IMG/VR virus record: IMGVR_UViG_3300038299_000184
Location: 63,788 to 127,787 of that record
Direction: 5' to 3' (one strand)
DNA: 64,000 nucleotides
From: a virus
Shown: positions 17,229-42,814 of the stretch, piece after piece
How positions within the stretch are numbered: position 1 is the stretch's first letter
How the letters are laid out: every line of letters starts with the position of its first letter
Made by a program: the position numbers and the translations under genes
Notes under the pieces: model-generated
Database searches by the model: none
Told to the model about the DNA's origin: nothing
The model's input: only the letters and a program-made list of their open reading frames with translations

Positions 17229-18041
17229 ATGAGCACTGAGTACATCTGGTTTAAGAAGGGTAAGGAATCTAGGAGAACTGTCGATGAAGCTGGTGAGAAA
17301 CCTACCTTGGAGAAACTACCCAATGGTGTGGAGATTCATACCAGATATATGAGTCCTTCACAAGAGCTTATATCTGTTGAATATAAGAAGGATGGTAAAA
17401 GGCACCGTGATGGTGACGAACCAGCGTATGTGCAGTATACAGGTAATGTAATTGATTCAGAGTCTTATTATAAGGAGGGTGTTGAACACCGCGATGGTGA
17501 CAAGCCAGCTTATATTAAATACATGGGCGGGAAGGTAACAAGAATGACATACTACAAGAACGGTGTTAGAACTAGGGTTGGTGATAAACCATATGACACA
17601 GGGTTCTACCGTAACGGGGATAAGCGTTTCGAGAATTATGGAAGTGGTAAGGGTCGGGGTGGTAGAACCCTCCACCGAGAGGGTGACAAACCTGCCAGTA
17701 CGTACTGGAACGAAGACGGTTCCTTAAAGAGTGAAAAGTGGTACCTCAACGGGTGGACTGGGCGCGAGGGTGATAAACCCGTTTCAATCGAATACGATAG
17801 TAAAGGGAGGAAACTGGAGGTCGTATATAAGAACAAGGATGGTGAGATACACCGCGACACCGACAACCCTTCAGTAATAGATTATCGCGGTGGTGTACTA
17901 GATGCTGTTTCCTATTACAAGAATGGTGAGAGACACCGCGATGATGATAAGCCCTCTTATATAGAATACAAGTTTAATGGTATCGATGTAGAGTTTGTAG
18001 AATATTATAAAAATGGTGTTGAGTACACACCAAAAAAATAG
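17229..18041 (+). CDS. HRDGDKPA (MORN-like) repeat protein, paralogue 1
   Basis: MSTEYIWFKKGKES leader; about 7 HRxGDKP-type repeats. Confidence 0.85.
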   Translation: MSTEYIWFKKGKESRRTVDEAGEKPTLEKLPNGVEIHTRYMSPSQELISVEYKKDGKRHRDGDEPAYVQYTGNVIDSESYYKEGVEHRDGDKPAYIKYMGGKVTRMTYYKNGVRTRVGDKPYDTGFYRNGDKRFENYGSGKGRGGRTLHREGDKPASTYWNEDGSLKSEKWYLNGWTGREGDKPVSIEYDSKGRKLEVVYKNKDGEIHRDTDNPSVIDYRGGVLDAVSYYKNGERHRDDDKPSYIEYKFNGIDVEFVEYYKNGVEYTPKK

Positions 18042-18863
18042 TTATCGATTATCATCGGGGGTGTATTGATCACCTCTCCAGAAGTATAACTCTGTCTCTA
18101 TAGAACCATCTTCAGCATATCTAATCTTAGCAGGTTTGTCATCAGCTCTATGGTGCTCACCATTCTGGTAATACAACTCTGCTAATACAGAACCGTCTTT
18201 ATCATACTTAGTCCTAGCAGGTTTATCACCACCCCTATGAAATTCCATATCATCGTTGTAGTATGATTCCATATGCTTACCACCCGATTCATAATATTGT
18301 ACAGAAGTTGGTTTATCATCTTCCCTACGAAACATGCCGAACTTATAATAGAACTCGTCCTGTATGTCAGAGCCTCCATCATAATAAACCATTATTGCTG
18401 GCTTATCACCTTCGCGGTGAAATTCGCCATCGATATGGTATCTAACATCTTTAGGTATATCAGTACCGTCTTGGTAGAATATATTTGCAGGTTTATCACC
18501 ACCACGGTGTAATTTATCGTTAGAGTAATAGAATTCCTCAGACACACCACCAGTTACTTCGTTGTATATAATCTTGGACGGTTTATCACCAACCCTGTGG
18601 AACTTGCCTTGGATTTTGTAAACCTCTTCAGTTTTATTACCGTCGAAGTCCCACTCTGTCCAAGCGGGTCTATCACCGTCACGATGTATCACATCACTTT
18701 TGTAGTAATACTCGCCACTCATCCTACCAGTTCGCTCGTGGTAAGTGTATTTTATCTCACCACCGTTAGGTAGCTTTTTATTAAGGGGTACACGCCCTTC
18801 TGGGTCGGCAGTCCTTTTAGACTCTCTACCGTCATTGAACCAGATGTACTCCTTTTTCCTCAT
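18042..18863 (-). CDS. HRDGDKPA repeat protein, paralogue 2 (inverted)
   Basis: MRKKEYIWFNDGRESKRTAD leader; repeats; TAATTA-N5-ATG. Confidence 0.85.
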   Translation of the reverse strand: MRKKEYIWFNDGRESKRTADPEGRVPLNKKLPNGGEIKYTYHERTGRMSGEYYYKSDVIHRDGDRPAWTEWDFDGNKTEEVYKIQGKFHRVGDKPSKIIYNEVTGGVSEEFYYSNDKLHRGGDKPANIFYQDGTDIPKDVRYHIDGEFHREGDKPAIMVYYDGGSDIQDEFYYKFGMFRREDDKPTSVQYYESGGKHMESYYNDDMEFHRGGDKPARTKYDKDGSVLAELYYQNGEHHRADDKPAKIRYAEDGSIETELYFWRGDQYTPDDNR

Positions 18864-18942
18864 ACATATAATTACCCACTGCGCCCGTCAGAAATCGACA
18901 TAATATATTTGTTACTGACCCACACAAGATATAATTAACTAC

Positions 18943-19578
18943 ATGTCTACTGAGTACATTTGGTTCAAGGGCGGTAAAGAATCCAAGAGAACTGCCGATC
19001 CTAAAGGTGAGAAACCTACCCTTGTTAAATCTGGGAATGGTAGGGAAATCAAATACTCGTACCATTATGACATGGAGGCTGATTATGATCAACGAATTAT
19101 TGGTGCGTCATCCGAGACACATTTACTAAATGGTGAGAAGGATAGAGAAGGTGGTAAGCCAGCATTTATTGCGTATGATGTACATGGTAAGGTATTACAC
19201 AGAGCCATGTGGGAAGGTGGTGTGAAACAGTTGGTAGAGTGGTTATATGAAGATGGGGGTATATACTGGTCAAAGTATTACACTAATGGTGAATTGCACC
19301 GAGAGGGTGATAAACCCGCCCAGATTTATTATTATTTCAGTGGTGAAATTCGAAATGAAACTTGGTATGATGTTGAAGGTGCCGAACACCGCGATGATGA
19401 TAAGCCAGCATTTATATCATATTTTAAAGACGGTAGTGTTAATCAAAAAAGATGGTATAACCATGGTAATATGCACAGGGGGGATGACCAACCTGCTGTT
19501 ATAACATACGACATTGATGGTAATGTAGAAAAAGAACTATATGTCTATGATGGTGAAGTTTACACACCACAAAAATAA
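18943..19578 (+). CDS. HRDGDKPA repeat protein, paralogue 3
   Basis: Same leader and repeats. Confidence 0.85.
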   Translation: MSTEYIWFKGGKESKRTADPKGEKPTLVKSGNGREIKYSYHYDMEADYDQRIIGASSETHLLNGEKDREGGKPAFIAYDVHGKVLHRAMWEGGVKQLVEWLYEDGGIYWSKYYTNGELHREGDKPAQIYYYFSGEIRNETWYDVEGAEHRDDDKPAFISYFKDGSVNQKRWYNHGNMHRGDDQPAVITYDIDGNVEKELYVYDGEVYTPQK

Positions 19579-19621
19579 TTGTTGACGAAACTATCGTGGT
19601 GTCATTAGTATAATTACATTC

Positions 19622-20248
19622 ATGTCTACTGAGTACATTTGGTTCAAGGGTGGTAAAGAATCTAGAAGAACCGCCGACCCTGCTGGTAAGCTACCCCTAA
19701 AGGAAGAACTGTCGGGTGGTAGGGAAATCAACCACAAGTATTTCCCTAGTGGTAATATTGCAAGATCTGTGTATACAACCAAAGGTAAAAGGACAAAGTC
19801 AATTGACTATAACATGTTTGGTGGTAAGGTCGTAACAGAATATAGTGGTCGTTCCGCATTTGTTAAGGAAGTATTTAAAAGTGACGGAAGTCGTGTAAAA
19901 ACTGAGCACTATAAGAACCTAAAGGACAAGCACCGCGATGGTGATAAACCTGCATATGTTCTGTATATACGGGATAGTAAAGGCACCGATGATGATATAC
20001 AGGTTGCTGAATATTATAAGGATGGTAAGCTTCACCGTGATGGTGACAAGCCAGCGGAAATACGAAACAATGATGACGGCTCAAAGAGGTATGAGACTTA
20101 TTATCAAAATGGTAAAAAACACCGCGATGGTGACAAGCCAGCGGATTTGGTATATGAAGATGGCGTGGTCATGCTCAGTAACCAATACAAGAATGGTGTT
20201 AGAGTTGAAGGGGGTAAATATACCCATAAAAATTGGGTACCCTTCTAG
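19622..20248 (+). CDS. HRDGDKPA repeat protein, paralogue 4
   Basis: Same leader; 3 repeats. Confidence 0.85.
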   Translation: MSTEYIWFKGGKESRRTADPAGKLPLKEELSGGREINHKYFPSGNIARSVYTTKGKRTKSIDYNMFGGKVVTEYSGRSAFVKEVFKSDGSRVKTEHYKNLKDKHRDGDKPAYVLYIRDSKGTDDDIQVAEYYKDGKLHRDGDKPAEIRNNDDGSKRYETYYQNGKKHRDGDKPADLVYEDGVVMLSNQYKNGVRVEGGKYTHKNWVPF

Positions 20249-20260
20249 ATAATTACATTT

Positions 20261-21349
20261 ATGTCTACTGAGTACATATGGTTCAAGAATGGCAAGGAGT
20301 CCAAGAGATCTATCGATGAGGCAGGTAAATTGATACCTCTAGAACAACTAGGTAATAACAGAAGAGTCGAACGAACTTTCAATGTCCATAATAAAGGTGT
20401 TTTAACATCGGAGAAATATTACAAGGGTGATCTACTACACCGCGATGGTGATCTACCTGCCCACACAGAGAATGATGTAGACGGTAAAGTAGAGTTCCAG
20501 ACATTTATGAAGGACGGGGCTAACCACCGTGATGGTGATAAACCCGCACATACAGAATTTGGTGTAGACGGTGAAAAAACAGTAGATTCTTATTATAAAA
20601 AAGGCGAGAAGCACCGTGATGGTGGTAAGCCCTCATTTGTAAAATACTACAGTGGTGGTGGAACTATTTGGGTAGAGAATTATTTTGTAAATGGAGAGCA
20701 TCACCGTGATGGTGATGAACCCGCAGTGGCATATTATGATCATGCTGGAAGGCCAACAATGACCGAATATTGGAAAAATGGAAAACGACACCGTGATGGT
20801 GACAAGCCAGCACAGCTCGAACTAACCATTAATGGTGATATAAAAAAAGAGGTTTATTATAAAGACGGTAAACTACACCGCGATGGTGACAAGCCGTCTG
20901 AAACCGAATATTACTCTGGTGGTAACGGACACATGGAAATGTTCCACAAGGAAGGTAACATGGAGACCACTCGTGAGTACCGTAGTGACGGATCTATGAA
21001 ACTACTGTCCTACTACAAGGACGACGAACCCCATAGTGTTGACGACAAACCCGCTCAGATATATTACAACACCAATGGCGATAAAGACGCTGAGGTGTGG
21101 TTCAAAGACGGTTACGTACACCGCGATGGTGATAAGCCAGCAGAATTGGTCTTTGACCCAAGTGGTGAGTTGAAGTCAGAGGGTTACTACTTCGAAGACG
21201 AGCTACACCGCGAGGGTGATAAACCAGCCTCGATTGTTTACAATGTTGATGGCACTGTCGGTAAAGAAACTTATTATAAACACGGTGAGGAATATGATCC
21301 TAACGAAGAAGTGGAATATTCCGAAACCGAGTATGACGAGGTGGACTAG
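20261..21349 (+). CDS. HRDGDKPA repeat protein, paralogue 5
   Basis: Same leader; about 9 repeats; acidic tail. Confidence 0.85.
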   Translation: MSTEYIWFKNGKESKRSIDEAGKLIPLEQLGNNRRVERTFNVHNKGVLTSEKYYKGDLLHRDGDLPAHTENDVDGKVEFQTFMKDGANHRDGDKPAHTEFGVDGEKTVDSYYKKGEKHRDGGKPSFVKYYSGGGTIWVENYFVNGEHHRDGDEPAVAYYDHAGRPTMTEYWKNGKRHRDGDKPAQLELTINGDIKKEVYYKDGKLHRDGDKPSETEYYSGGNGHMEMFHKEGNMETTREYRSDGSMKLLSYYKDDEPHSVDDKPAQIYYNTNGDKDAEVWFKDGYVHRDGDKPAELVFDPSGELKSEGYYFEDELHREGDKPASIVYNVDGTVGKETYYKHGEEYDPNEEVEYSETEYDEVD

Positions 21350-21867
21350 CCGTAGCCGAGGATTCTCTTACCGTTCTCTGCCTTATGTGTGGTGTGGCTT
21401 TCATCTTTATAAATTAGATTAAAAAGATCTGCACTGAATGGTGCTGAGGCAACAGCCTTATCTAACACCTCTTGGTTTGACAAACCTTTCAAATCTTTAG
21501 ATCCTATAGTACCTTCATTAGTACCCCCAATACTACTATAGTTAACTTGGATTATAGGATTTTTAGAAGGGTTTGATTGACCATAGTTCTTATATCCGAG
21601 TTTCTCACCAGCTCTTACTTTGAAGCCGAGGTATTGTCCTGTTTTAATATACTCCATTAAGTTTCTGGAGTGTACACTGTGTTTATTACCATCCTCATCC
21701 ACGACCAAACCAAATATATCAATGTTTGGTTTGTGATCGGTGGGGGAAGTGGCATTCATAGCCACCAACTTGATAGACCCACCATCCTTGGTTTCTAGAT
21801 CTTCCTCATATCTAGGATGACCATTTGTTTTTAGAATACCTTCGATAACAGTTGAAAATTTGCTCAT
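21346..21867 (-). CDS. Tag-B protein (MSKFSTVIEGIL), unknown cargo
   Basis: Leader plus TAATTA-N5-ATG. Confidence 0.65.
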   Translation of the reverse strand: MSKFSTVIEGILKTNGHPRYEEDLETKDGGSIKLVAMNATSPTDHKPNIDIFGLVVDEDGNKHSVHSRNLMEYIKTGQYLGFKVRAGEKLGYKNYGQSNPSKNPIIQVNYSSIGGTNEGTIGSKDLKGLSNQEVLDKAVASAPFSADLFNLIYKDESHTTHKAENGKRILGYG

Positions 21868-22092
21868 AAATGTAATTAGTATAAATTGTTGAGAACACCA
21901 CTGTTACTACTTCAATAACCTACAGTGGTGTTCCATTTATAAAACGCGCAACGGTTATAGAGTATTGCACATACAGTTTATCAGAATACTCTATCTTACT
22001 AGTACCGTCAACCTGCTCTAAGCGTAGTCTCATATCCTACGAGGTGTACACAGTACCACATAATGACGTGGTGTCAACGCCTAATTACATTT

Positions 22093-22668
22093 ATGTCTGA
22101 CGAATACATTTGGTTTAAGAATGGTAAGGAATTTAGGAGAACTGCTGACGAAGAGGGTGATATCACAACACAGGAGAACCTACCCAATGGTATTGTTATG
22201 GAACATGTAACTAATGGTAATGCTAGTATAAAAACATATAAAAAGAACGGCGTGTTACATCGTGATGGTGATGAACCTGCTAGAATTGTATATCGTGATG
22301 CTTATGATGTAGACACACTAAAAAAGGTGGAATATCATAAAAGTGGGATGAGGCACCGCGATGGTGATAAACCACAATCAATAACATATGATAAATATGG
22401 TGACGTTGAGATAGAACAATACCTTGTCAATGATCAAATGCATCGTGACGGTGACAAACCTGCATACATATATTATTATGACAATGGTGATATACGCACC
22501 GAGGTTTATATCAAAAACGATGATTATCACCGTGACGGTAATAAACCCGCAATTATCAGATATGATAAAGAGGGTAATATAGAGTCAATGAGTTATTATA
22601 TACACGGTGAAGAGCAAGCCAACCAGAGTGATAAGGATTTATTAGACGAGTTGGGTGTTGAACACTAA
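22093..22668 (+). CDS. HRDGDKPA repeat protein, paralogue 6
   Basis: True start MSDEYIWFKNGKE at 22093; 4 repeats. Confidence 0.85.
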   Translation: MSDEYIWFKNGKEFRRTADEEGDITTQENLPNGIVMEHVTNGNASIKTYKKNGVLHRDGDEPARIVYRDAYDVDTLKKVEYHKSGMRHRDGDKPQSITYDKYGDVEIEQYLVNDQMHRDGDKPAYIYYYDNGDIRTEVYIKNDDYHRDGNKPAIIRYDKEGNIESMSYYIHGEEQANQSDKDLLDELGVEH

Positions 22669-22691
22669 GTACATTTACCCTAATTAAATTC

Positions 22692-23606
22692 ATGCCAAAG
22701 CGTTTCAATAGTGCAATAAATATAGTCCTACAGGAATCCAATTTCGTTTTGGATGCTGATGTTGACACCGTCATGGAATTACTACGTATCGATGACATGA
22801 TCCGTGATTACAAAAGTAATCCGACCAGCATGGAGTGGTATGAAGTTTTGAATGATCAATATAATAAAACCCCTCAGTTGTCTACCATGGATTCTGAATA
22901 TTTAGGTGGTGTTGATGCCCAACGTGCAAATCAAAAACTACCAGTGCAAATCAAATTGATGGGCGGGGGTAGGGGTCATGGTTACGTTGCTAACCAAAAA
23001 CTTATAATGTTCATATTACCTAGTGGTGTGGTTAAAGCACTGGGTGAATCTGGTCTGAATAACACAGCGGTTCTTTCCGAGAACCCTAGTTACAGAAAGT
23101 ACTTTGATCTGGGTTATTGGAGAAGTGTAATAGCACATGAACTAACTCACTGGATGGAGGATGCAATCTATGGTGGTAAAATAACCAAGGATAATGATAG
23201 GTTTAAAAATAAGCGCGGGACACTCAACTTGAAGAAAAGCCGACAAGTGGATAAAGCTGGTGAGTTTAGATCTCAAGACAAAATAGATCAACTAGAACTC
23301 GATAAAACCGTGACAGGTGGTATCGAAACCGAAGCGGTCATTGCACAGCTTAAACAACGCAAGAGGACGGTTGGTGCTGAGGAGTGGGATGCGATGTCTT
23401 TCAAGGATTTATATAAACTCGACCCTATACTCAAACACTACATCGACAAAGCCCGAAATGGAACCGAGACAGGGCGTTTTGACAGGAACAAGGCTGGTCT
23501 GTCAGACAAAGACTTTAAAGCGTATATACAGCGTTTAATCCAGAAGATGGATAGAGTTGGTATACTAGGTGCTAGTATGAGAAACCCCGTAGGCGACATT
23601 AACTAA
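22692..23606 (+). CDS. Tag-B protein with zincin-like HExxH metallopeptidase motif
   Basis: MPKRFNSAINIVLQES leader; VIAHELTHW...ETEA. Confidence 0.55.
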   Translation: MPKRFNSAINIVLQESNFVLDADVDTVMELLRIDDMIRDYKSNPTSMEWYEVLNDQYNKTPQLSTMDSEYLGGVDAQRANQKLPVQIKLMGGGRGHGYVANQKLIMFILPSGVVKALGESGLNNTAVLSENPSYRKYFDLGYWRSVIAHELTHWMEDAIYGGKITKDNDRFKNKRGTLNLKKSRQVDKAGEFRSQDKIDQLELDKTVTGGIETEAVIAQLKQRKRTVGAEEWDAMSFKDLYKLDPILKHYIDKARNGTETGRFDRNKAGLSDKDFKAYIQRLIQKMDRVGILGASMRNPVGDIN

Positions 23607-23614
23607 TTACATTT

Positions 23615-24391
23615 ATGTCTACCGAGTATATTTGGTTTAAGAAGGGTAAGGAATCCAAGAGGACTGCTGACCCAGAAGGTAAACTACCCACTGTGGAGAA
23701 CCTACCTAATGGGAGAACCGCAACATATACATACAATAATTTAATAATTGTATCCAAACACATTAAGAAGGGTGGTGAATACGATGGCGGTAATGATCCT
23801 GCTATATCTCAATATGATAGAAACGGTAACTTGTTAAAGGAGCAATATGTTAAGGATGATTACCACCACCGCGATGGTGGTAAGCCAGCAATAATAGGTT
23901 ATAATATCAGTACTGGCAAACCCTTCTTAGAGGAATATTATATAGATGGCAAACGCCATAGGGAAAATGATAAACCCGCAGTTGTAGAGGACTATGCAAG
24001 TAGTGGTAAACATGAGGTGTGGTGGTTCAAAGGTACAATGCACCGCGATGGTGATAAGCCAGCAGACATATCCACCAATAATAAAGGCGTTGTGACACAA
24101 GAGACATGGTATGTTGATAATAAACAACATAGAGAGGGGGATAAACCTTCTGAGTTGCGCTATTGGGATAACGGCAATTTGAAGGTTGAGACATACACTA
24201 TCCATGACGGTATGCTACACCGCGATGGTGATAAACCCGCACAAATTATGTACAACGAGAATGGTGATAAACAGGAATCTCGATACTACGAGGTCGGAAA
24301 TCGTATAAAGGTGGTAGAGCACACTAAGAAAGATCTCACAAAGTCCCAAAAGGATTTTAATGAAATCTCTGATCTGTTGAGAGATAATTAA
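23615..24391 (+). CDS. HRDGDKPA repeat protein, paralogue 7
   Basis: Same leader and repeats. Confidence 0.85.
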   Translation: MSTEYIWFKKGKESKRTADPEGKLPTVENLPNGRTATYTYNNLIIVSKHIKKGGEYDGGNDPAISQYDRNGNLLKEQYVKDDYHHRDGGKPAIIGYNISTGKPFLEEYYIDGKRHRENDKPAVVEDYASSGKHEVWWFKGTMHRDGDKPADISTNNKGVVTQETWYVDNKQHREGDKPSELRYWDNGNLKVETYTIHDGMLHRDGDKPAQIMYNENGDKQESRYYEVGNRIKVVEHTKKDLTKSQKDFNEISDLLRDN

Positions 24392-24761
24392 ATTTACCGA
24401 TCCCTATATATGCCCCACAGATCCCATGCCAAATACCCCACACCAGTAGCCTGTAGACAGAAACCAAACCAGTATAGGTTTGGGTGGTAGGTGGGTAGGA
24501 TGGTACACCACGTTGGGATTGCTAGTGCTAATGCTAGTATGTATAAACGTGCTCTCATTATTTAAGAATTTTCAACCCTGTTACAATCGCACCTATAAGA
24601 CCCACCATCTGCAACCCCAAACCAATGCAGCCCAGCACGTCATAAGGTTCTGGTAACCAGACTAGTTGCCCGAGGGGTGCAATGCCCATTATTAAGAACG
24701 TGTTGAATAGTTTATTTGTCATACGGGTAATCTTATATTATTAATACAGTGGTGTCAACAA

Positions 24762-25487
24762 CTAAAATTCCCCTGTGTGAATTACCTTGATGTTGGCGGG
24801 GTTGATAGACTTCTTAACATAGACAGCATCGAACGTTTTACCACCACTTGCCATAGGGTCATCAAACCTCTCAATACCTTCTGGTAGATCAACGTTCAAA
24901 ATTACAATTTGGTCTTCATCCCAGCGACCATCATCATTACCAGAATCCACAAGCTTGTTCTTCTTATCCATAAACAGGATCTCAGTAATTGATTTAACCA
25001 ATGACATGTCATCCGTGTAAAGTAGGTAGATTCTATCAGCGGGGTGGTTGAAGGTTGTGGTGGTCTCCCTTGGATTCAAACCATTCTTCTTAATCTTATT
25101 GTAGTAGGTTTTGTTGGTGATATGGTAGTACTGCCAACCGTCTTTCTTCTCGTGATTCCTGTCAGCAGTTTTAGGTTCTATTACCAAGCGGTGTTGATTA
25201 GACTTAACTACGTACCAACCGTAAACCTCCAGCTTCTTATTCACAATATCTACGTAATCCGTCAAGTCCACATTTCTTGCAACGATAGCAAAATACTGAT
25301 CATCGGGTTTCTCATCAACAAACAATTTAATGTCGTGCTCACGCTGGAAATACCCTTTCAAGAATTTGATAGTGGTTTCCTTGGGGTATGACTTAATCAA
25401 GCCCTCCTCTAGGGTGTTGACAATATTCTCGATGGCGGTTTCACCAACCACACCAAGACTCTTTATCACATCATAAAATTTACTCAT
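24762..25487 (-). CDS. Tag-B protein with C-terminal ADP-ribosyltransferase-like (Tpt1/KptA-like) domain
   Basis: True start MSKFYDVIKSL at 25487 after TAATTA; YYHIT...IKKNGLNP...RIYL motif. Confidence 0.55.
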   Translation of the reverse strand: MSKFYDVIKSLGVVGETAIENIVNTLEEGLIKSYPKETTIKFLKGYFQREHDIKLFVDEKPDDQYFAIVARNVDLTDYVDIVNKKLEVYGWYVVKSNQHRLVIEPKTADRNHEKKDGWQYYHITNKTYYNKIKKNGLNPRETTTTFNHPADRIYLLYTDDMSLVKSITEILFMDKKNKLVDSGNDDGRWDEDQIVILNVDLPEGIERFDDPMASGGKTFDAVYVKKSINPANIKVIHTGEF

Positions 25488-25586
25488 AAAGTTAATTATA
25501 CACTGTGGTAACGTCCTGTCAACACCACATGGTGTTATGAATTTAAATGTTGACACATGAGAAGATCTGTGTACTTTGAGCTGCAC

Positions 25587-26957
25587 ATGAAGAAGTTAAC
25601 ACATGAGGGTATACAAAAGTACTTGGATGACAACGACAGAAACATAACACTGTTAAAATATGGTGGTGGGTCAAAAGAAACGACATCCTTGTTTAAATGT
25701 GATGAGTGCTCTCATGAGTGGACTACTAGTGTTAGAGGTATTAAAAGGTGTAAGGGGTGTGGGCAATGTGCTAAGTTGAACAGGAAGAATGGGTTAACAC
25801 ATGAGAGCATACAGAAGTACTTGGATGACAATGGCAGAAACATAACACTGTTGAAATACGGTGGTAAGTCAAAAGAATCGACAACCGAGTTTAAATGTGG
25901 GGAATGTTCCCATGAGTGGACTACTAGTGTTGTTGGTATTAAAAGGAGTATTGAAAAGGGTTATGGCTGTCCTTCATGCTCTAACACATTACCCCTAACA
26001 CATGAGGACATACAACAGCATTTGGATGACAATGACAGAAATATAACACTGTTGAAATACGGTGGTCACAGTCTCTCACCGTCCGAGTTTAAATGTGTGG
26101 TGTGTTCCCATGAGTGGACTACTAGTACCAATAACATTAAAAAGGGTAACGGTTGTGCTTCCTGTTCTGGTAACGCACCACTAACATATGAGAGCATACA
26201 GAAGTACTTGGATGACAACGACAGAAACATAACACTGTTAAAATATGGTGGTGGGTCAAAGGAAACGACAACCGAGTTTAAATGTGGGGAATGTTCCCAT
26301 GAGTGGACTACTAGTGTTTTGTGTATGAAAGGTAGTATTGAAAAGGGTTATGGCTGTCCTTCATGCTCTAACACATTACCTCTAACACATGAGGACATAC
26401 AACAGCATTTGGATGACAATGACAGAAATATAACACTGTTGAAATACGGTGGTGGGGTGGCTTATACAGCCCTGTTTAAATGTGGTGAATGTTCCCATGA
26501 GTGGACTGCCCTTGCTGGTAGTGTTAAAAGAAGCACGGGGTGTCCAGCATGTGCCCAACACCAGACCGAGTCAAAGCAGTCTGCTAAGTTCCGTAAATAC
26601 CTAACCGATAACAACTACGAATTTAGAACGGAATACAGATTCCCCAGCATCAAACATAAAGCCCTACTACCGTTCGATTTCTGTGTACAGCTACAAGATA
26701 ACTCAATACTCGTAGTAGAAATTGATGGAATACAACACTTTCAGCCCACCTACTTCGGTTCGGTAAAGGGTAAAACCAAGGAAGAGGTACGGGTATTAAG
26801 AGAACAAAACCTAACCAACACCCAACACCGCGATGGTATCAAGACTAAAGGCATCGCTGACATGAAAGCTGAGGGTAAGCCAATCGACCTATTACGTATA
26901 CGCTACGACGAAGATGTAGAGGAGATATTCGAGGGGTATATCAGTGGTGTGGTATAA
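25587..26957 (+). CDS. Zinc-ribbon-repeat endonuclease with C-terminal Vsr/PD-(D/E)xK-like domain (putative homing endonuclease)
   Basis: Five FKCxxCSHEW...GCxxC repeats; LPFDF...EIDGIQHF...RD..K...LLRIRY. Confidence 0.75.
   Translation: MKKLTHEGIQKYLDDNDRNITLLKYGGGSKETTSLFKCDECSHEWTTSVRGIKRCKGCGQCAKLNRKNGLTHESIQKYLDDNGRNITLLKYGGKSKESTTEFKCGECSHEWTTSVVGIKRSIEKGYGCPSCSNTLPLTHEDIQQHLDDNDRNITLLKYGGHSLSPSEFKCVVCSHEWTTSTNNIKKGNGCASCSGNAPLTYESIQKYLDDNDRNITLLKYGGGSKETTTEFKCGECSHEWTTSVLCMKGSIEKGYGCPSCSNTLPLTHEDIQQHLDDNDRNITLLKYGGGVAYTALFKCGECSHEWTALAGSVKRSTGCPACAQHQTESKQSAKFRKYLTDNNYEFRTEYRFPSIKHKALLPFDFCVQLQDNSILVVEIDGIQHFQPTYFGSVKGKTKEEVRVLREQNLTNTQHRDGIKTKGIADMKAEGKPIDLLRIRYDEDVEEIFEGYISGVV
25597..26555 (+). 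repeat. Five intragenic ~186-201 bp near-identical repeats
   Basis: Recurrent TAACACATGAG...TTGGATGACAA..ACAGAAA.ATAACACTGTT.AAATA.GGTGGT. Confidence 0.85.
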
Positions 26958-26965
26958 TTACATTT

Positions 26966-27334
26966 ATGTCTACTGAGTATATTTGGTTTAAGAAGGGTAA
27001 GGAGTCTAGGAGGACTGTCGATCCAGAGGGTAAGAAGCCCACTATGGAAAAACTACCAAATGGTTTTCAGATCAAATACTCCTACGACGAACAGGATGGT
27101 AATTTAGCTTGGAGTATCTATTCCAAAGATGGTGTATACCAGAGCTATGGTGATAAACCAGCATCTACTGAGTATTATGCCGATGGCACGATTGAGGCTG
27201 AATACTGGGCTAAAAACGGTGAGCACCACCGCGATGATGACAAGCCAGCAATAATAGGATACCACGAAGATGGGACTATTGATTACGAGTACTACTATAC
27301 CGATGGTAGTGAATACAATTTCGTTAAGCACTAA
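26966..27334 (+). CDS. HRDGDKPA repeat protein, paralogue 8 (shortest, 2 repeats)
   Basis: Same leader. Confidence 0.85.
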   Translation: MSTEYIWFKKGKESRRTVDPEGKKPTMEKLPNGFQIKYSYDEQDGNLAWSIYSKDGVYQSYGDKPASTEYYADGTIEAEYWAKNGEHHRDDDKPAIIGYHEDGTIDYEYYYTDGSEYNFVKH

Positions 27335-27342
27335 TTAATACC

Positions 27343-27855
27343 ATGTCTACTGAGTACATATGGTTTAAGAATGGTAAGGAGTCTAAGAGGACTGCTGACG
27401 AACTTGGTAATAAACCTACCGTGGTGAAGTTACCCAATGGTGTGGAGGTAAGATATGAATATCATAATGATGGTATATACAAGGAGGAACATTTCCAAAA
27501 TGGTGAGAAGCACCGCGATGGTGATAAACCTGCCCACATTAGTTATAACAGGGATGGGTCTTTGAGTGTTGAGGGATATTTCCAAAATGGTAAGGAACAT
27601 CGTGATGGTGATAAACCCAGCTATATTGAATATCATATCAGCGGGTCTGTTCATATAGAGGGGTATTACCAAAACAATCTACCACACCGCGATGGTGATA
27701 AGCCAGCGGCAATAACTTACTATAAAGATGGGTCTGTCGCATCCGAAGAATATTACAAGAATGGTAGGAGACACCGCGATGGTGATAAACCATCAGAGAT
27801 AGGTTATAGTGCGGACGGGACTGTGGAATATAAGTACTACCAAAATGGTGAGTAG
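27343..27855 (+). CDS. HRDGDKPA repeat protein, paralogue 9 (premature TAG; family tail YTPKQ continues to 27873)
   Basis: Same leader; NGE*YTPKQ*. Confidence 0.85.
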   Translation: MSTEYIWFKNGKESKRTADELGNKPTVVKLPNGVEVRYEYHNDGIYKEEHFQNGEKHRDGDKPAHISYNRDGSLSVEGYFQNGKEHRDGDKPSYIEYHISGSVHIEGYYQNNLPHRDGDKPAAITYYKDGSVASEEYYKNGRRHRDGDKPSEIGYSADGTVEYKYYQNGE

Positions 27856-27881
27856 TACACGCCTAAACAATAATTACATTT

Positions 27882-28235
27882 ATGTTGATTGATCCAATAG
27901 TTGAATGGGTAAAGGATAAGATAGGTGGTGAGAATGCTCGCACCGAAATAACACTACGTGATAAAACATACGTGGTGTCCTATGCCAAACCTAGAACAGG
28001 ATACGATGCCAAATATGCAATGGCAACTGTGTATGTATCAACTGCTAATAATGAGGTATCACTAAAGCTTAACATATTCGTTAACTTGGATGACGATGTA
28101 CAACTGGCTGATTATAACAACTTGGATGATGTGGTGTCACAGGCAGCATCTAAAACTTTGGACGAGGCTCTATTTGAGATGGAGACCATCATTGCTATGG
28201 GAGACTTTAAAGTCTTCGCAGATCTATTGGTGTAA
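27882..28235 (+). CDS. Tag-C family protein 1
   Basis: C-terminus IAMGDFKVFADLLV; TAATTA-N5-ATG. Confidence 0.7.
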   Translation: MLIDPIVEWVKDKIGGENARTEITLRDKTYVVSYAKPRTGYDAKYAMATVYVSTANNEVSLKLNIFVNLDDDVQLADYNNLDDVVSQAASKTLDEALFEMETIIAMGDFKVFADLLV

Positions 28236-28254
28236 TGGGAACCTAATTAACAAC

Positions 28255-28620
28255 ATGGATATAAAATATGATGACATTGTTACATCATTCACTGCTGCTG
28301 CTGGGGGTAAGTTAAACCCACTGCATGATGCATCAAGTATTCTTGGCGAAATGGGTGATGCAGATGCAACAGCATCCGTAGAGGAAACCGAGGGAACTTT
28401 TGCCGAGGGAACTTTTGAATACTGGGCTTATATGGATTCTATTGATGCTTATATATCATTCAACAAAGTTGGGGAGATCGTGGTCAGTTATGGGGCTGAA
28501 CTACAACCTATAGATGAACACATTAGTAAAGTGTTTACCGACAATGTGGAAGCATGGAGGTTCTTCAAGGGTGTCCTCCTATTGGGTGAATTCTCAGTGT
28601 TCATGGATTTATTATACTAA
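28255..28620 (+). CDS. Tag-C family protein 2
   Basis: True start MDIKY after TAATTA; C-terminus LLLGEFSVFMDLLY. Confidence 0.7.
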   Translation: MDIKYDDIVTSFTAAAGGKLNPLHDASSILGEMGDADATASVEETEGTFAEGTFEYWAYMDSIDAYISFNKVGEIVVSYGAELQPIDEHISKVFTDNVEAWRFFKGVLLLGEFSVFMDLLY

Positions 28621-28628
28621 TTACATTT

Positions 28629-29327
28629 ATGGCTACTGAATACATTTGGTTTAAGAGGGGTAAAGAGTCCAAGAGGTCTGTTGATGAACTTGGTGAGAAA
28701 CCCCTCTCTGAGAAGTTACCCAATGGTGCGGAGGTTAAATATGAATACACCCGCCGAGGTGAGCCTCTCACCAAGGGTGTTTATGTTGATGGCGAACTCC
28801 ACAGTGTTGATGGAGAACCTGCATATATCCAGTACACACCAGAAGGTGACGTTGAAGGTATTGCATATTATAAAAACGGGAAGGGTCACCGTGCTGGGAT
28901 TAAACCCGCGAGTATATTATATTGGGCAGACGACACCAATAATGTATATATGCAGTATTGGTATACGGACGGGGTACTTACTAAAACCACCGAACATTGG
29001 CGGGATGGTAAACTCATGAAAGAGATGTACCACAACTCTTTTTCAGATTACCACAGGGATGGGGACAAACCAGCAGTCACCGTATATTCGATTGATGGTA
29101 CCACTAAGAACTATGAGGAGTATTACAAGAATGGTAGGAGACACCGCGATGGTGATAAACCTGCTGGGGTGACTTACTACAATGACGGTAAAACCATATC
29201 ACAGGAGATATGGATGCACGACGATGAATGGCACCGCGAAGGTAAACCCGCGATCATAAGCTATGACCGTGATGGTAATGTAACGGATGAATCCTATTAC
29301 GAAAACGGTATAGAGGTAGACCACTAA
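28629..29327 (+). CDS. HRDGDKPA repeat protein, paralogue 10
   Basis: MATEYIWFKRGKES leader; repeats. Confidence 0.85.
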   Translation: MATEYIWFKRGKESKRSVDELGEKPLSEKLPNGAEVKYEYTRRGEPLTKGVYVDGELHSVDGEPAYIQYTPEGDVEGIAYYKNGKGHRAGIKPASILYWADDTNNVYMQYWYTDGVLTKTTEHWRDGKLMKEMYHNSFSDYHRDGDKPAVTVYSIDGTTKNYEEYYKNGRRHRDGDKPAGVTYYNDGKTISQEIWMHDDEWHREGKPAIISYDRDGNVTDESYYENGIEVDH

Positions 29328-29685
29328 TACAACGCCCATATAACCACTACATTATAATTGTACAAACACCCCGTGGTGTGGCTGACAGGGCTTCCTAATA
29401 AGTCCGAACATATGATGTAGACGTACTGCTACACCACTGGTATTGTAGGCGTACTGCTACACGTACACTTACTAATATGCTTACCGTATAGATACGAGTA
29501 CTGTTAGATACGTGGGCGGCTGCTACGGGGTGTCGTAATAATACTCCACTAGTGGCATTACCAGTGGTGTTCATCGGAACAATCCTCTGGTGTTAAAAAA
29601 TACTGTTGAAAATTTTTACTGTAGAATTTTTTGGGTGCGGGATTTCTGTAACCCATATTTTACAGTACTGATATTTGGGATTTTA

Positions 29686-35044: not shown

Positions 35045-36496
35045 ATGAAGATTATGGTGAATGGGATTAATACAAATAATGCTCGATCAATCCTTGGAGA
35101 ATTTTGGTTGGCTCATGGTGATGAATATGGCTATGACCGTATGGTTTATGTTAAAACCACACAGAAGGTTATCATCACATGCAGGATACACGGGGACTTC
35201 AAACAAACTCCCCATAAGCACAAAAACGGGCAAGGGTGTCCAAAATGTTCTAAGGCTAAGGCTTGTGTTAATATTCGTGCCAAGAAGTCACAATCAATCC
35301 TTGGGGAGTTCCATTTGGCTCATGGCTATGATAACTATGACTATAGTAAAATGATTTATGTTAAATCCACACAGAAGGTTATCATCACATGCAGGATACA
35401 CGGTGATTTCAAACAAACCCCTAGTAAGCATAAAAATGGACAAGGTTGTCCCGAATGTGCTAATGCTAAGGCTGGTGATATTCTTCGTTTGGATCATGAT
35501 ACGGTCATTAACGGTTTTAAGAGAGTTCATGGCGATGATACATATGACTATAACAGTGTTGATTATATTAATAACAATACCCATGTGTTAATCATCTGTA
35601 AAGAGCATGGTGTATTCTCACAAACCCCAGCTATGCACATTAGGGGTAGGGGGTGTAGGAAATGTGCCAATATTAGAATGCAAAGTATAATGTCACTTGA
35701 CCAAGAGACCGTACTTCAAGAATTCAGACGGGTACACGGGAATGATACCTATGACTATAGCGGGGTCGTTTATACTGGTACTAACACGTATGTGGATATC
35801 ATCTGTAAAACTCACGGTGTATTCAAACAAACACCTACAAGTCACAGATCGGGTTCTGGGTGTCCTAAATGTGGTGATGCTAAAACTGGTGATAAATTAA
35901 GGAAAACTGGTGATCAAGTGATTAAAGAGTTCAACCTCATATACGGGGAGGGCACCTATGATTATAGTAAGATGGATTATGTCAATGCCAATGATCGTGT
36001 GGATATCATATGTAAGGAACATGGTTTATTCTCACAATGTCCTACAAACCACAGGAGGGGGCACGGGTGTCCTAAATGTAGTAGAAATCATCGTACAGAG
36101 TATGGAGTACAAGAAACTTGTGCAAATCTATTCGAAATGTGTCATAACCAAGTACATGTCAAACTTGGGGGTAGTTGTGGTTACTATGATATCTTAATCA
36201 ATGACTCGCACTACATTGAGGTGCATGGCGAACAGCACTACACCGCTGATAACTATTTCCATCGTATCCACAGGAAACTAGACCAACCTCAATCATATAA
36301 CAAACTCAGAGCTACTGACCGTGCCAAGGTAGATGCCTCACTAGCTGATGGTAAACCACTACTTGAGCTGTCACTACCATTCATCAAGAACACCACTGAA
36401 GATGAACTCAAGCAATTGATCAAGGATTTCGTTGATAACAAACTACCAGCTAGGCGTAAGACTCGTGGTACTGGTTATAGTGTATATTTACCTTGA
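35045..36496 (+). CDS. DUF723-repeat (Hef-like) putative homing endonuclease
   Basis: Five YDY...IICxxHGxFxQxPxxHxxGxGCPxC repeats; C-terminal YDI..IEVHGEQHY nuclease motif. Confidence 0.75.
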   Translation: MKIMVNGINTNNARSILGEFWLAHGDEYGYDRMVYVKTTQKVIITCRIHGDFKQTPHKHKNGQGCPKCSKAKACVNIRAKKSQSILGEFHLAHGYDNYDYSKMIYVKSTQKVIITCRIHGDFKQTPSKHKNGQGCPECANAKAGDILRLDHDTVINGFKRVHGDDTYDYNSVDYINNNTHVLIICKEHGVFSQTPAMHIRGRGCRKCANIRMQSIMSLDQETVLQEFRRVHGNDTYDYSGVVYTGTNTYVDIICKTHGVFKQTPTSHRSGSGCPKCGDAKTGDKLRKTGDQVIKEFNLIYGEGTYDYSKMDYVNANDRVDIICKEHGLFSQCPTNHRRGHGCPKCSRNHRTEYGVQETCANLFEMCHNQVHVKLGGSCGYYDILINDSHYIEVHGEQHYTADNYFHRIHRKLDQPQSYNKLRATDRAKVDASLADGKPLLELSLPFIKNTTEDELKQLIKDFVDNKLPARRKTRGTGYSVYLP

Positions 36497-39948: not shown

Positions 39949-40248
39949 ATGATTACCATAAAAGAACGAGTATATGGTGCCGACCCTAAAGTAGACACCG
40001 TAAAAGATATAGAAGAGCTTCTTGCCCTTGATTGGGTCAAGGTGTATGGAGAACGTTGTACGGATGAGGGTGACAAGATGTGTCATGCTCTAAATGTCAG
40101 TACCACATCAGTACTACTCATATGTATGAGCGGTTGGGATGAAGACACTGGTAAGTACGCTACGTGGAACCCTATTGGCTACGTCACCACTGATGGTGAT
40201 GAGCTTGAATCCCTTCCTAGGTTTGATGACCTCAAGTCTAACACTTAA
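39949..40248 (+). CDS. Hypothetical protein
   Basis: ATG 37 nt after TTGACA at 39912. Confidence 0.55.
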   Translation: MITIKERVYGADPKVDTVKDIEELLALDWVKVYGERCTDEGDKMCHALNVSTTSVLLICMSGWDEDTGKYATWNPIGYVTTDGDELESLPRFDDLKSNT

Positions 40249-40685
40249 AGTTGTTGGTTGATACTCAAGTCATCACTGTTGAATACTATACCTTGGTGTT
40301 CCTCTTCGACATATAGACCACCGTAGCCATCATCTATGAAATGTTGTTGGGTCAGTTGCTCTGCTTCACTCGCCATGGGTATACCACCCCACTCACCACC
40401 ATTCTCAGATTGTAGTTTGTCATAGAAGTGGCTCCTTACAGTTAGATAGTCATCCTTGTCAGTCTCCTTGAGATTGGTGTTGATGGTTACCTCGTAGACC
40501 TCACCAGTATAGTTATGCTCGTCATCTTTGGTGAAATCAACCGCCAAGTCTTTGTTCTTGGTGATGTACACACCTTTACCCAGCTCACCACCTTGTGAGG
40601 CTCTGAGTTCTGTCAATCCTTTGAGGCTGCTACCGTGATAATAAGTGTCCCTTGTATATTGCTCGTAGAATGTTTTGAAGTCCAT
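40245..40685 (-). CDS. Tag-B ADP-ribosyltransferase-like protein
   Basis: MDFKTFYEQ leader; YYHGS, GELGKGVYIT...LA, GEVYEV, GYGG, IVFN. Confidence 0.7.
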   Translation of the reverse strand: MDFKTFYEQYTRDTYYHGSSLKGLTELRASQGGELGKGVYITKNKDLAVDFTKDDEHNYTGEVYEVTINTNLKETDKDDYLTVRSHFYDKLQSENGGEWGGIPMASEAEQLTQQHFIDDGYGGLYVEEEHQGIVFNSDDLSINQQL

Positions 40686-40703
40686 GATATTAATTAGTTA
40701 ACC

Positions 40704-41717
40704 TCATCTCCTACGTCTAGCTGTACCATCTTCATTATAACTGATGAAATTGGGTTCACCGTTCTCACGTTTGTAGTTTTTACCCCTTTGTTCATAAGAT
40801 TCAATACTCTTATTACCACTAGGGTAGTACTCTATGTACGAGGGCTTGTCGCCTTCGCGGTGTGCTTGAGCATGTTCGTAGTATTGTTCCATCTTAACTA
40901 CACCACCATCGTAGTACTCTATGTGTGCGGGTTTACCTCCATCGCGATGGAGGTCATTATTGAGGTACCATGACTCTGTTTTGACCTGTCCGTTGGCGTA
41001 ATATTCAATACTTGCAGGTTTATCACCTTCGCGGAATTTAGAGCCATCCTCAAAATAATACTCCTGTTTTACTTTACCATCCTCATAGTACTGTATGCTT
41101 GCAGGTTTATCACCATCGCGGTCTAATTTACCACTATTGTCACGCCACTGTTCACGCCCTTTATTACCATTAGGGAAATATAATATGACGTGCTTACCTT
41201 GGTAATAGTTATTCTCATAGAATTTGTTTCCAGTAACTAACCCATCTATATCATATTCTATCTGTGAGGGTTTACCGCCATCGCGGTGGCGTTCGCCATT
41301 TTTATAGTATTCCTCTACTTGTTTAACACCGCCATCACTGTATGAAATCTTGGCTGGTTTATCACCACCTCGGTGGACTAAACCTTTATTAAAGTATTCC
41401 TCTACAAATAAATTACCTGTTGGGTAGTAGTTCAACTCAGCAGGTTTATCTCCATCGCGGTGCTTCTTACCACCTATATAATACAACTCAAGAGATGGTT
41501 TAAAGCCTTCTGTATGGATCTCAGCGGGTTTATCACCAGCTCGGTGCTTCTCACCATTCTTGGTATGGGTCTCGTATATATCCCCTTCACGGAAACCGTA
41601 CACGTATTTGATTTCCACACCATTGGGTAGTTTCTCCAATGTAGGTTTGTCACCTTCTGGGTCGGCTGTCCTCTTGGATTCCTTACCCTTCTTAAACCAG
41701 ATATACTCAGTAGACAT
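40704..41717 (-). CDS. HRDGDKPA repeat protein, paralogue 11
   Basis: Same leader; about 9 repeats. Confidence 0.85.
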   Translation of the reverse strand: MSTEYIWFKKGKESKRTADPEGDKPTLEKLPNGVEIKYVYGFREGDIYETHTKNGEKHRAGDKPAEIHTEGFKPSLELYYIGGKKHRDGDKPAELNYYPTGNLFVEEYFNKGLVHRGGDKPAKISYSDGGVKQVEEYYKNGERHRDGGKPSQIEYDIDGLVTGNKFYENNYYQGKHVILYFPNGNKGREQWRDNSGKLDRDGDKPASIQYYEDGKVKQEYYFEDGSKFREGDKPASIEYYANGQVKTESWYLNNDLHRDGGKPAHIEYYDGGVVKMEQYYEHAQAHREGDKPSYIEYYPSGNKSIESYEQRGKNYKRENGEPNFISYNEDGTARRRR

Positions 41718-41767
41718 GTATGTAATTAGGTTGACACCCCTAGTTATCCATGTATAGTGACAGGGCT

Positions 41768-42190
41768 ATGAACAAAGAACGTTTACTGAAACTGGCTGAA
41801 TTCCTTGATGGACTAGACGACTCCAAATTCAACTTCGCACATGTTGTTGAAACATATAACCCTTTAAACTGCTGCGGTACAGTATGCTGTGCTATGGGAT
41901 GGACACCAGTGGTGTTCCCAGATATTGTTAAGTGGTGTGGGGGTGATGACGTATATAACCATAATAACATCTGTTTAATCAAGGGGTCGGGGTCACCTTC
42001 TTATGTAGATGTGGCTACACACTTATTCGACATCCCTCGTGAAGATGCAAGTGGTTTATTCACACCAACCCTTCAATATGAAATCATCTGTAGATATGAG
42101 CGCGATCTACCTATTGTTGGTCACGATGCAACACCCGACGAGGTTGCTGACCTTATCCGTAAATACGTCGAACTAATCACAAACCTATGA
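41768..42190 (+). CDS. Hypothetical early protein (CGTVCCAxGW family), copy 2
   Basis: LLKLAEFL...CGTVCCAMGW...DATPDEVADLIRKYVEL. Confidence 0.7.
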   Translation: MNKERLLKLAEFLDGLDDSKFNFAHVVETYNPLNCCGTVCCAMGWTPVVFPDIVKWCGGDDVYNHNNICLIKGSGSPSYVDVATHLFDIPREDASGLFTPTLQYEIICRYERDLPIVGHDATPDEVADLIRKYVELITNL

Positions 42191-42229
42191 GGGCTGTGAA
42201 CAAGAGATTTACTCAAGGTTTAGCCAGTC

Positions 42230-42814
42230 CTAACGCTTCTTACCAACGTAGTCTGATTCTTCACCACTACCCTCGTCACCACCTTCCCAGAACTCTACTG
42301 CATTAATAGTGACACCATCCTTGTCATAGTGTTTTACGGCAGGTTTCTGGCCACTACGGTGCCTCAGACCGTCCTCATACCAAGCCACTCTAGAAAGCAC
42401 ATCCTTGCCCCAGTAGTCTAACATAGCGGGTTTGTCACCATCTCTGTGATGCACGTCATTGATGTACCATGCTTTTTTATAAGCAAAAGGCTCATCATCT
42501 AGGTTCTCTTTATCGTATGATAAATAGGCGGGTTTATCACCTTCGCGGTGTATCTTACCATCCTTATACCAGAACTCGTATTGTAGACCCCCACCACCGA
42601 GAGGGTTATTATATTTAACGGATGCTGGGTTATCATCAAAACTATGTAACCTACCACCCTTATAAGTTGTTATGTACTGAACCTTACCCAAGTGGTATTT
42701 GAACTTCCTCTCGCCACCATTGGGTAGTTTCTCCGAAGAGATAAGTTTACCTTCCTTGTCGGCAGTTCTCTTGGATTCCTTACCATTCTTGAACCATATA
42801 TATTCGTCAGCCAT
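42230..42814 (-). CDS. HRDGDKPA repeat protein, paralogue 12
   Basis: MADEYIWFKNGKES leader; 4 repeats. Confidence 0.85.
   Translation of the reverse strand: MADEYIWFKNGKESKRTADKEGKLISSEKLPNGGERKFKYHLGKVQYITTYKGGRLHSFDDNPASVKYNNPLGGGGLQYEFWYKDGKIHREGDKPAYLSYDKENLDDEPFAYKKAWYINDVHHRDGDKPAMLDYWGKDVLSRVAWYEDGLRHRSGQKPAVKHYDKDGVTINAVEFWEGGDEGSGEESDYVGKKR

Follow-up and report, generated by a model that had tools for sequence, protein, structure and literature searches.

We report here a family of twelve paralogous genes, carried by a recurrent uncultured marine phage, whose products all begin with the same N-terminal leader and continue with repeats built around an HRDGDKPA loop. The genes lie in the right half, 64,000 nucleotides (nt) long and hereafter called the window, of the IMG/VR virus record IMGVR_UViG_3300038299_000184, which spans 127,787 bases. 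The family is a long-period variant of the MORN/MORN_2 class, with 29 amino acids (aa) per repeat, and is not canonical MORN_2 by Pfam threshold. Alignment and a structure model together make the leader best read as a modified initial repeat serving as cap at the N-terminal edge of the sheet, not as a detachable tag, and the paralogues appear to be old and stable rather than hypervariable. For the wider reading of the family, as a lineage-specific expansion of soluble MORN/MORN_2 (YwqK-type) binders with a specialised N-terminal cap, we find acceptance and doubt about evenly balanced. An earlier, sequence-only reading of the window had described these genes as a diversified binder library in which a constant docking or packaging module carries hypervariable repeat bodies; its observation is partly confirmed and its interpretation partly supported by the results below.

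Twelve genes share a leader and 29-residue repeats

All 12 open reading frames (ORFs) begin exactly at the starts first assigned to them and, as had been noted, they occupy both strands, nine on the + strand and three on the - strand. A six-frame scan of all 127,787 bases found the EYIWF leader in exactly 12 frames and none besides, and all 12 frames are open. The members are the following.

Member 1: 17229..18041, + strand, 270 aa; leader and 6 strict HRDGDKP-type cores; C terminus VEYTPKK; orthologue P0004, 83%
Member 2: 18042..18863, - strand, 273 aa; leader longer by one residue (MRKKEYIWF); 7 cores; C terminus QYTPDDNR
Member 3: 18943..19578, + strand, 211 aa; 4 cores; C terminus VYTPQK; relative P0012 (same ends, divergent middle)
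Member 4: 19622..20248, + strand, 208 aa; leader, a stretch of about 60 aa lacking strict cores, and 3 cores; orthologue P0047, 93%
Member 5: 20261..21349, + strand, 362 aa; 9 strict cores; acidic tail
Member 6: 22093..22668, + strand, 191 aa; 4 cores; orthologue P0028, 76%
Member 7: 23615..24391, + strand, 258 aa; 5 cores; non-repeat C-terminal tail; relative P0005
Member 8: 26966..27334, + strand, 122 aa, the smallest member; one strict core and one degenerate
Member 9: 27343..27855, + strand, 170 aa; leader and 4 clean 29-aa units; used for the structure model
Member 10: 28629..29327, + strand, 232 aa; 4 strict cores; orthologue P0008, 91%
Member 11: 40704..41717, - strand, 337 aa; 8 cores; just upstream, on the same strand, of a tagged ART-PolyVal-like gene (40245-40685) described below
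Member 12: 42230..42814, - strand, 194 aa; 4 cores; orthologue P0026, 75%

The start of member 6 was set at 22093 by its leader and by the TAATTA-N5-ATG context described below; the open frame itself extends upstream to 22063.

The proteins contain 59 strict HR(D/E)GDKP-type cores in total, from 1 to 9 per protein, and degenerate cores add more, so that the range of 2 to about 9 repeats originally given holds once both kinds are counted. The repeat length does not: it had been put at about 25 aa, and the actual period by core spacing is 29 aa. Among 47 core-to-core spacings, 37 measured 28-30 aa and 5 measured 32-34 aa; the remaining 5, at 52-59 aa, each cover two units, the core of one having decayed. 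The consensus of the 29-aa unit is ExYYKNGxxHRDGDKPAxIxYxxDGxvxx. Likewise, the description of the proteins as often ending in GxxYTP was overstated: YTP followed by 2-4 residues closes 3 of the 12 proteins, and two more end in a looser form. Ten of the 12 are acidic to neutral, with isoelectric points (pI) of 4.8-6.7.

The repeats are predicted to form a MORN-like sheet

That the repeats are beta-hairpins of the MORN kind, as the sequence-only reading had suggested, was borne out by structure prediction and comparison. An AlphaFold2 model of member 9, built with 29 leader-bearing sequences, was all-beta, with a predicted local distance difference test score (pLDDT) of 93.6 and a predicted template modelling score of 0.85. 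Foldseek returned 143 matches to this model in BFVD at E <= 1e-3, the best named ones being giant-virus MORN repeat proteins, a "MORN variant" of an uncultured Caudovirales and a YwqK-family antitoxin. MORN or YwqK-type proteins made up most of the named matches, and E values to named MORN proteins went down to 1e-9. Structural comparison with the PDB brought up engineered OspA single-layer sheets (Z 10-10.8; root mean square deviation 3.4-3.6 over 145 residues) together with MORN1, radial-spoke MORN proteins, SET7/9 and MORN4 (Z 7.5-8.8), Z values in a range where a match may reflect a common arrangement only, and at a sequence identity of 9-17%. Neighbours in the ESM Atlas were Uroviricota MORN_2 clusters (0.92) and a YwqK antitoxin cluster (template modelling score 0.81). 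The model thus points to a MORN-like fold, an elongated single-layer antiparallel beta sheet of hairpin repeats.

Sequence comparison led to the same class. The sole recurring Pfam match was MORN_2 (PF07661), found in 6 of the 12 members at E <= 0.1. A large protein collection held 904 relatives at E <= 1e-3; among the best 120 of these 904, 11 had a precomputed PF07661 match and 5 bore the Joint Genome Institute (JGI) name "antitoxin component YwqK." Two relatives, P0010 (34.5 bits; E 1.7e-41 to member 9) and P0040 (32.8 bits), passed the MORN_2 gathering cut-off of 29.6 bits. We therefore place the family in the MORN/MORN_2 fold class on the basis of fold and transitive homology. The best cellular relative, a 409-aa protein on a contig of Photobacterium marinum AK15 (L066:5746-6975), consists of about 13 units of the 29-aa HRDGDKPA repeat, is 51% identical to the repeats of the window and reaches 57.8 bits against MORN_2; it has no leader.

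The Photobacterium gene adjoins an H-NS gene and an ATPase-like gene and possibly lies in a genomic island. No toxin gene was found next to it or next to the repeat gene of an Isosphaeraceae locus, the 2 of 15 cellular loci that were examined by Pfam and by eye.

The leader is best read as a capping repeat

The leader, M(S/A)(T/D)EYIWFKxGKES(K/R)R..D..G, extends over about 35-40 residues and precedes the HR(D/E)GDKPA repeats in all 12 proteins. Eleven of its residues are invariant (M1, E4, Y5, I6, W7, F8, G11, E13, R16, D19 and G22), and mean column identity over 43 aligned columns was 71%, compared with 30% over the whole proteins. Conservation of EYIWF, an aromatic edge strand that is the same in 12 of 12 members, goes beyond that of the internal repeats.

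Two observations relate the leader to the repeats that follow it. When 38 leaders were aligned to 51 repeat units with hhalign, the leader matched the unit (P 6.3e-4; probability 28%) in a register that sets WFKNGK on YYKNGK and G-K-x-P on GDKPA, the loop of the leader being 5 residues longer. In the model of member 9, the leader forms four strands (residues 5-9, 12-17, 25-29 and 34-41) that stand directly ahead of the repeat strands.

To separate constraint on the protein from constraint on the DNA, the proportions of synonymous (pS) and nonsynonymous (pN) differences were compared. Over leader codons 2-17 in 66 paralogue pairs, pS was 0.66 and pN 0.11, pS in the leader being 0.64-0.66; the values for repeat units were 0.74 and 0.42. 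As pN in the leader lies far below a nearly saturated pS, the constraint acts on the protein rather than on the DNA, and the copies are old. The same values rule out a DNA-level cause for the conservation of the leader, such as gene conversion, a recombination cassette or an in-gene translation signal.

The sequence-only reading knew no description of this leader, and we found none either; the leader is rare. A leader profile gave 30 matches among 1.84 billion representative sequences, and 26 of them carried the leader at the N terminus: 23 on HRDGDKPA repeats, 2 on fragments (46 and 63 aa) and 1 on another body (P0136, E 7e-4). The other 4 were long unrelated repeat proteins matching part of the profile. 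The leader was present in 29 of the 120 best homologues, 3 of which are the window's own, and was absent from all 61 IMG/VR loci examined. Two pattern scans of metagenome contigs for leader-bearing loci returned 199 matches each, of which 0 were confirmed. The earlier note had asked whether the leader might be a structural cap found on all cellular homologues. It is not: leader patterns had 0 matches in prokaryote genomes of 185,579 species, and of the 15 cellular loci found by repeat patterns, the two that were read had no leader. On this distribution the leader appears confined to one marine phage clade and would serve as a signature of it.

The paralogues appear old and stable

We compared positions 17000-29500 with contigs of four further seawater sequencing runs, from four studies, and found 0 indels and 2 single-base differences. 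Both differences (at 23638 and 23644) fell in a contig that joins the leaders of two paralogues. Orthologues were recognisable for 7 paralogues in related marine contigs, at 60-93% identity and with the same idiosyncratic repeat layout; across the seven pairs, leaders were 90% identical, cores 91% and the remainder 71%. The term hypervariable, as first applied to the repeat bodies, therefore describes the divergence between old paralogues and does not describe variation within populations. Given their age and the conservation of each one in related phages, the twelve copies are likely to have distinct jobs.

Conservation alternates along the strands. In an alignment of 23 units, A17, I19 and Y21, together with V27, E1 and Y3, are conserved, and positions 18, 20 and 22, together with 28 and 2, are variable; such a pattern is expected of a scaffold face with its loops set against a face that is free to vary. 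Two of the pairs have a mosaic make-up. Residues 1-43 (nearly to 47) and the last 10 residues are the same in member 3 and in P0012, whose middle parts are far more divergent, and member 12 (42230-42814) and P0026 are about 90% identical in one half and about 60% in the other. Recombination could account for these pairs, as could fast or locally accelerated evolution of the body.

We also considered whether the bodies are hypervariable targets of a diversity-generating retroelement. No match to a reverse transcriptase (RVT_1) was found in the record, which is 44% complete by estimate, and with the near-identity of the four further runs this candidate was rejected.

In the four other runs, contigs end or cross-join at leaders, at 17292-17330 and 23603-23685; in one example the leader at 23615 is joined to that at 17229. 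The shared leader thus breaks short-read assemblies, and the family illustrates how such genes come to be under-represented in assembled data.

The phage and its capsid-targeting-like tags

The record contains T4-type genes for portal, major head protein, Dda helicase, RNA ligase, sheath stabiliser and head maturation protease (phrog_207, E 1e-40), as well as NAMPT. Identity of its major capsid protein to T4-like cyanophage capsids is no more than 33%, and that of its terminase to any GenBank phage no more than 31%; the GenBank phage records available gave 0 matches by tblastn (members 1 and 5) or by megablast (17000-30000). The stretch recurs in seawater metagenomes of several studies (19 runs, none of them RNA). 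The source is therefore a recurrent uncultured marine phage and a distant relative of T4, and its host is presumably a bacterium. More than 20 kb separate the window from the head and tail genes upstream of it, and the family region holds accessory genes and homing endonucleases.

The T4 literature describes a 10-residue capsid targeting sequence (CTS) at the N terminus, MKTYQEFIAE (PMC8442874), that loads internal proteins with unrelated bodies into the capsid (PMC3012670, PMC9026906, PMC8442874) and is removed by the head protease gp21, which cuts after L/I-x-E (PMC9026906). These internal proteins are a diverse set with the CTS alone in common (PMC3012670) and are highly basic (PMC8442874); one of them, internal protein I (IPI), is an injected anti-restriction protein (PMC3012670, PMC9026906).

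By eye, we found a tag resembling the T4 CTS, M-x-K/R-F-x-x-x-I-E/N with a hydrophobic-x-Glu site, on at least eight otherwise unrelated small-protein genes in the window, interleaved with the repeat family. TAATTA stands upstream of seven of the eight listed here.

10677, + strand: CTS-like-tagged gene, the one without TAATTA in the upstream window checked
17173, - strand: CTS-like-tagged gene
21867, - strand: CTS-like-tagged gene
22692, + strand: CTS-like-tagged gene
30108, - strand: CTS-like-tagged gene
31803, - strand: CTS-like-tagged gene
34093, - strand: CTS-like-tagged gene
40685, - strand (40245-40685): CTS-like-tagged gene, 146 aa, ART-PolyVal-like

The last of these matches ART-PolyVal, an ADP-ribosyltransferase domain, at E 2e-6, its 28.9 bits falling short of the 31.2-bit cut-off. 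A gap of 18 nt separates it from member 11, which lies upstream on the same strand, and its product could be an injected enzyme like Alt, perhaps with member 11 as a partner. The MSTEYIWFK family itself does not carry the CTS-like tag, and its leader has no conserved L/I/V-x-E in the 12-member alignment.

Two large genes resembling HNH or homing endonucleases, at 25557-26957 (+ strand) and 35045-36496 (+ strand), are inserted among the family genes. Both encode about 5 tandem zinc-ribbon-like modules of about 65 aa (LTHE.IQ.YLDDN.RNITLLKYGG...C.EC.HEW).

Start context of the family genes

The sequence-only reading had given each gene its own TAATTA promoter. The motif is indeed present at all 12, as TAATTA-N5-ATG at 11 and with a spacing of N6 at 17229. 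However, it is found genome-wide, which rules out a family-specific promoter, and its status as a promoter is only putative. The record contains 52 TAATTA-N5-ATG sites, and at 48 of these an ORF of 40 codons or longer follows. Measured to the next ATG, the spacing after TAATTA was 5 nt in 50 cases, and every other spacing from 1 to 23 nt occurred at most 5 times. The same context precedes the genes for large terminase, portal, sheath stabiliser and head maturation protease, several HNH endonuclease genes and small accessory genes (in the window, for example, 17173-, 21867-, 22692+, 27882+ and 40685-); it is absent at the genes for Dda helicase, NAMPT, RNA ligase, the CCA-adding enzyme, a kinase and a polymerase-like protein.

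Among 38 gene starts checked, a Shine-Dalgarno-like 4-mer lay within 20 nt of the start at 3, and GGAG, GAGG and AGGA occurred at 0. TAATTA-N5-ATG could be a candidate late promoter yielding leaderless mRNAs, or else a Shine-Dalgarno-independent start signal. The T4 late promoter box lies at a similar distance upstream of its transcript start. That head genes and injected-looking neighbours have this start context in common with the family suggests late co-expression of the family.

A further box, resembling GTGGTGTCAAC, precedes TAATTA by 1-8 nt at 5 of the 12 family genes (19590-19621, 22060-22092, 26935-26965, 41718-41745 and 42815-42845) and at 4 other genes (upstream of 31803-, 32182-, 32935- and 34093-), and may be an upstream promoter element. 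Counts in the record were 91 + 107 for GTGGTGT and 12 + 28 for GGTGTCAA.

What the family may do

In the reading of the family as an expansion of capped binders, the HRDGDKPA loop and every second strand residue would form a conserved scaffold, and the alternate strand residues and turns, which vary between paralogues, would set the binding specificity of each copy. The leader would cap the N-terminal edge of the sheet, kept there by strong selection at the protein level. Each paralogue would bind, and then block or re-route, a different host (or phage) protein, as YwqK does with its toxin, and the family is possibly antitoxin- or anti-defence-like. A diversified binder library, as the sequence-only reading had it, is in this respect reasonable, given the MORN-like fold and the alternation of conserved and variable positions; its constant packaging module fares less well, as discussed below.

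Several points weigh against this interpretation. The MORN_2 gathering score was reached by 0 of the 12 members, the best scoring 22.5 bits (E 1e-4) against the required 29.6, and the family profile found nothing relevant in PDB sequences or NCBIfam. We infer binding from fold class and conservation pattern only. A toxin-like gene adjoins just 1 of the 12 members (member 11, with its ART-PolyVal-like neighbour), so the layout of the YwqJK immunity pair is not reproduced. The hhalign match between leader and repeat is weak at the stated probability, and the leader may do more than cap, because a plain cap has no obvious need for 11 invariant residues when synonymous sites are saturated. Finally, four relatives of the repeats in other phages (P0009, P0010, P0065 and P0068) begin with a T4-CTS-like peptide, M(K/R)(T/E)FKQ...(L/I)xE, and have the same 29-aa repeats and the same GxEYTP end.

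This last observation bears on the alternative that the leader is a constant packaging or docking address and the proteins are capsid-loaded, injected inhibitors of host defence, like the internal proteins of T4. The N termini of those four relatives are much like the CTS MKTYQEFIAE (PMC8442874), and T4 internal proteins are themselves diverse with only the CTS in common (PMC3012670). The family is interleaved with eight CTS-like-tagged genes (MxKFxxxIE...), one of which, the below-cut-off ART-PolyVal-like gene, is reminiscent of T4 Alt; the start context of the family is also that of terminase, portal, head protease and sheath stabiliser, and the phage encodes the head maturation protease (phrog_207). 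The relatives and the interleaving make virion delivery plausible in general for proteins of this kind. The leader of the present family, however, is unlike the CTS and unlike the phage's own CTS-like tag, and has no hydrophobic-x-E at a conserved place, where gp21 cleaves after L/I-x-E (PMC9026906). It can be aligned to the repeat unit; the model, all-beta, gives it four strands placed directly before those of the repeats; and it is not portable, occurring in 23 of 26 cases on repeats, with 2 fragments and 1 other body. The pI of 10 of the 12 proteins differs from the highly basic character of T4 internal proteins (PMC8442874), and late co-expression is itself only putative. We thus consider a separate packaging address unlikely, and virion delivery through this leader possible but unsupported and, on balance, a minority view.

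A different shared role is conceivable, in which the leader is an interaction module that pairs edge to edge, forming mixed dimers, or docks to a common phage or host hub to which the variable bodies bring their targets. The extreme conservation of the aromatic edge strand in 12 of 12 members, beyond the internal repeats, would suit such a module, and each of the other viral expansions of these repeats likewise starts with a constant module of its own, such as the ~60-aa module common to 13 tandem copies on a 353-kb IMG/VR contig. The partner, however, is only hypothetical, and constant N termini in some arrays may simply reflect recent duplication. An F-box-like reading of the other viral N termini was dropped, as Pfam supported an F-box in 0 of 6 and found no other domain either. 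We regard this alternative as improbable.

We also consider doubtful a more specific, joint proposal: that the paralogues are immunity-protein mimics, each neutralising a different host toxin or defence effector (for example, of late-triggered abortive-infection or toxin-antitoxin systems), and that all of them dock through the cap to a single hub, which would be the prohead core, for injection in advance of the next infection, or else a protease or a chaperone. Were it true, the leader would be a second, repeat-built system for targeting the capsid or a hub, beside a T4-type CTS in the same phage.

The start context in common with structural genes, and the elongated beta-sheet rods of the model, could also suit variable head or tail surface proteins or fibre-like appendages. 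Yet no structural PHROG family was matched (a family of unknown function matched weakly in 2 of 4 members), a dozen distinct decorations would be out of the ordinary, and the genes sit among accessory and homing genes, away from the head and tail genes over 20 kb upstream; a role as virion decoration is accordingly very improbable. Hardly credible, and largely refuted, is a neutral or selfish repeat expansion without specific function, or an assembly artefact. Assemblies do break at repeat families, the leaders are where contigs of other runs stop or cross-join, and marine long reads reportedly show a 37-fold enrichment in MORN repeats over assemblies (PMC9238414). Against this, 12 of 12 frames are open, pN in the leader falls far short of pS, related phages conserve each copy, and the sequence recurs in four further runs from four studies with 0 indels and 2 base differences.

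Should the paralogues of the capped-binder reading indeed bind host defence or toxin proteins, they would constitute a natural panel of inhibitors and a route to their targets.

Comparison with known systems

Multigene families of repeat proteins are a hallmark of giant viruses and have hardly been described in phages. The literature searched gave no account of a comparable phage family save a remark on MORN-rich marine viral long reads (PMC9238414). The present family is a clean example from a bacterial virus, with twelve anciently diverged and individually conserved MORN-type proteins, probably binders, a clade-specific cap and, in the same region, genes for proteins with a T4-like capsid-targeting tag. 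The leader together with the 29-aa unit provides a sequence signature with which this phage clade can be found in marine data.

Comparison with Bacillus subtilis YwqK (COG2849/MORN_2) draws on the recurring MORN_2 matches (6 of 12), on the relatives that pass the cut-off, and on the names of homologues and structural neighbours (JGI and UniProt-derived), which say YwqK-family antitoxin. YwqK is described as the binding immunity protein of the YwqJ deaminase toxin, which it neutralises (bioRxiv 10.64898/2026.09.29.755374). The two systems differ in that the phage family has twelve copies, none at the MORN_2 gathering score, and in that an immunity gene adjoins its cognate toxin, whereas 11 of the 12 phage genes have no toxin-like neighbour, member 11 being a possible exception.

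IPI, IPII and IPIII, which are internal proteins of T4, embody the same concept of a constant N terminus on divergent bodies in a T4-type phage. Their CTS has 10 residues, is cleaved after L/I-x-E and stands on unrelated bodies, whereas the leader described here has about 35-40 residues, is repeat-derived and stands on one kind of body. Eukaryotic MORN proteins (MORN1, junctophilin-2, the N-domain of SET7/9, MORN4 and radial-spoke proteins) and engineered OspA have the same elongated single-layer hairpin sheet; the canonical MORN repeat, however, has 23 aa and no HRDGDKPA loop, and identity to the phage family is 9-17%.

The MORN families of giant viruses (Marseilleviridae, Orpheovirus and klosneuviruses) belong to the same fold class and supplied the best BFVD matches, at E 1e-10 to 1e-6 and at most 34% identity. 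Tandem arrays of paralogues with varying repeat number are also found there and are common on large viral contigs. The function of the giant-virus multigene families is likewise only assumed to be protein binding (PMC5753266). Repeats of the giant-virus type mostly have a period of 23-24 aa and stand behind other N-terminal modules, in contrast to the 29 aa of the phage family and its presumed bacterial host.

On the 353-kb IMG/VR contig, 13 repeat ORFs lie within a locus of at most 21 kb. Tandem arrays were seen at four loci on IMG/VR contigs of 353 and 214 kb (L016, L007, L015 and L030), with up to 13 HRxxDxPA repeat genes and a period of about 23 aa, and these arrays have a constant N-terminal module of about 60 aa, …ICxPxLRSILQSVVSRFLYREEINNMCGAN….

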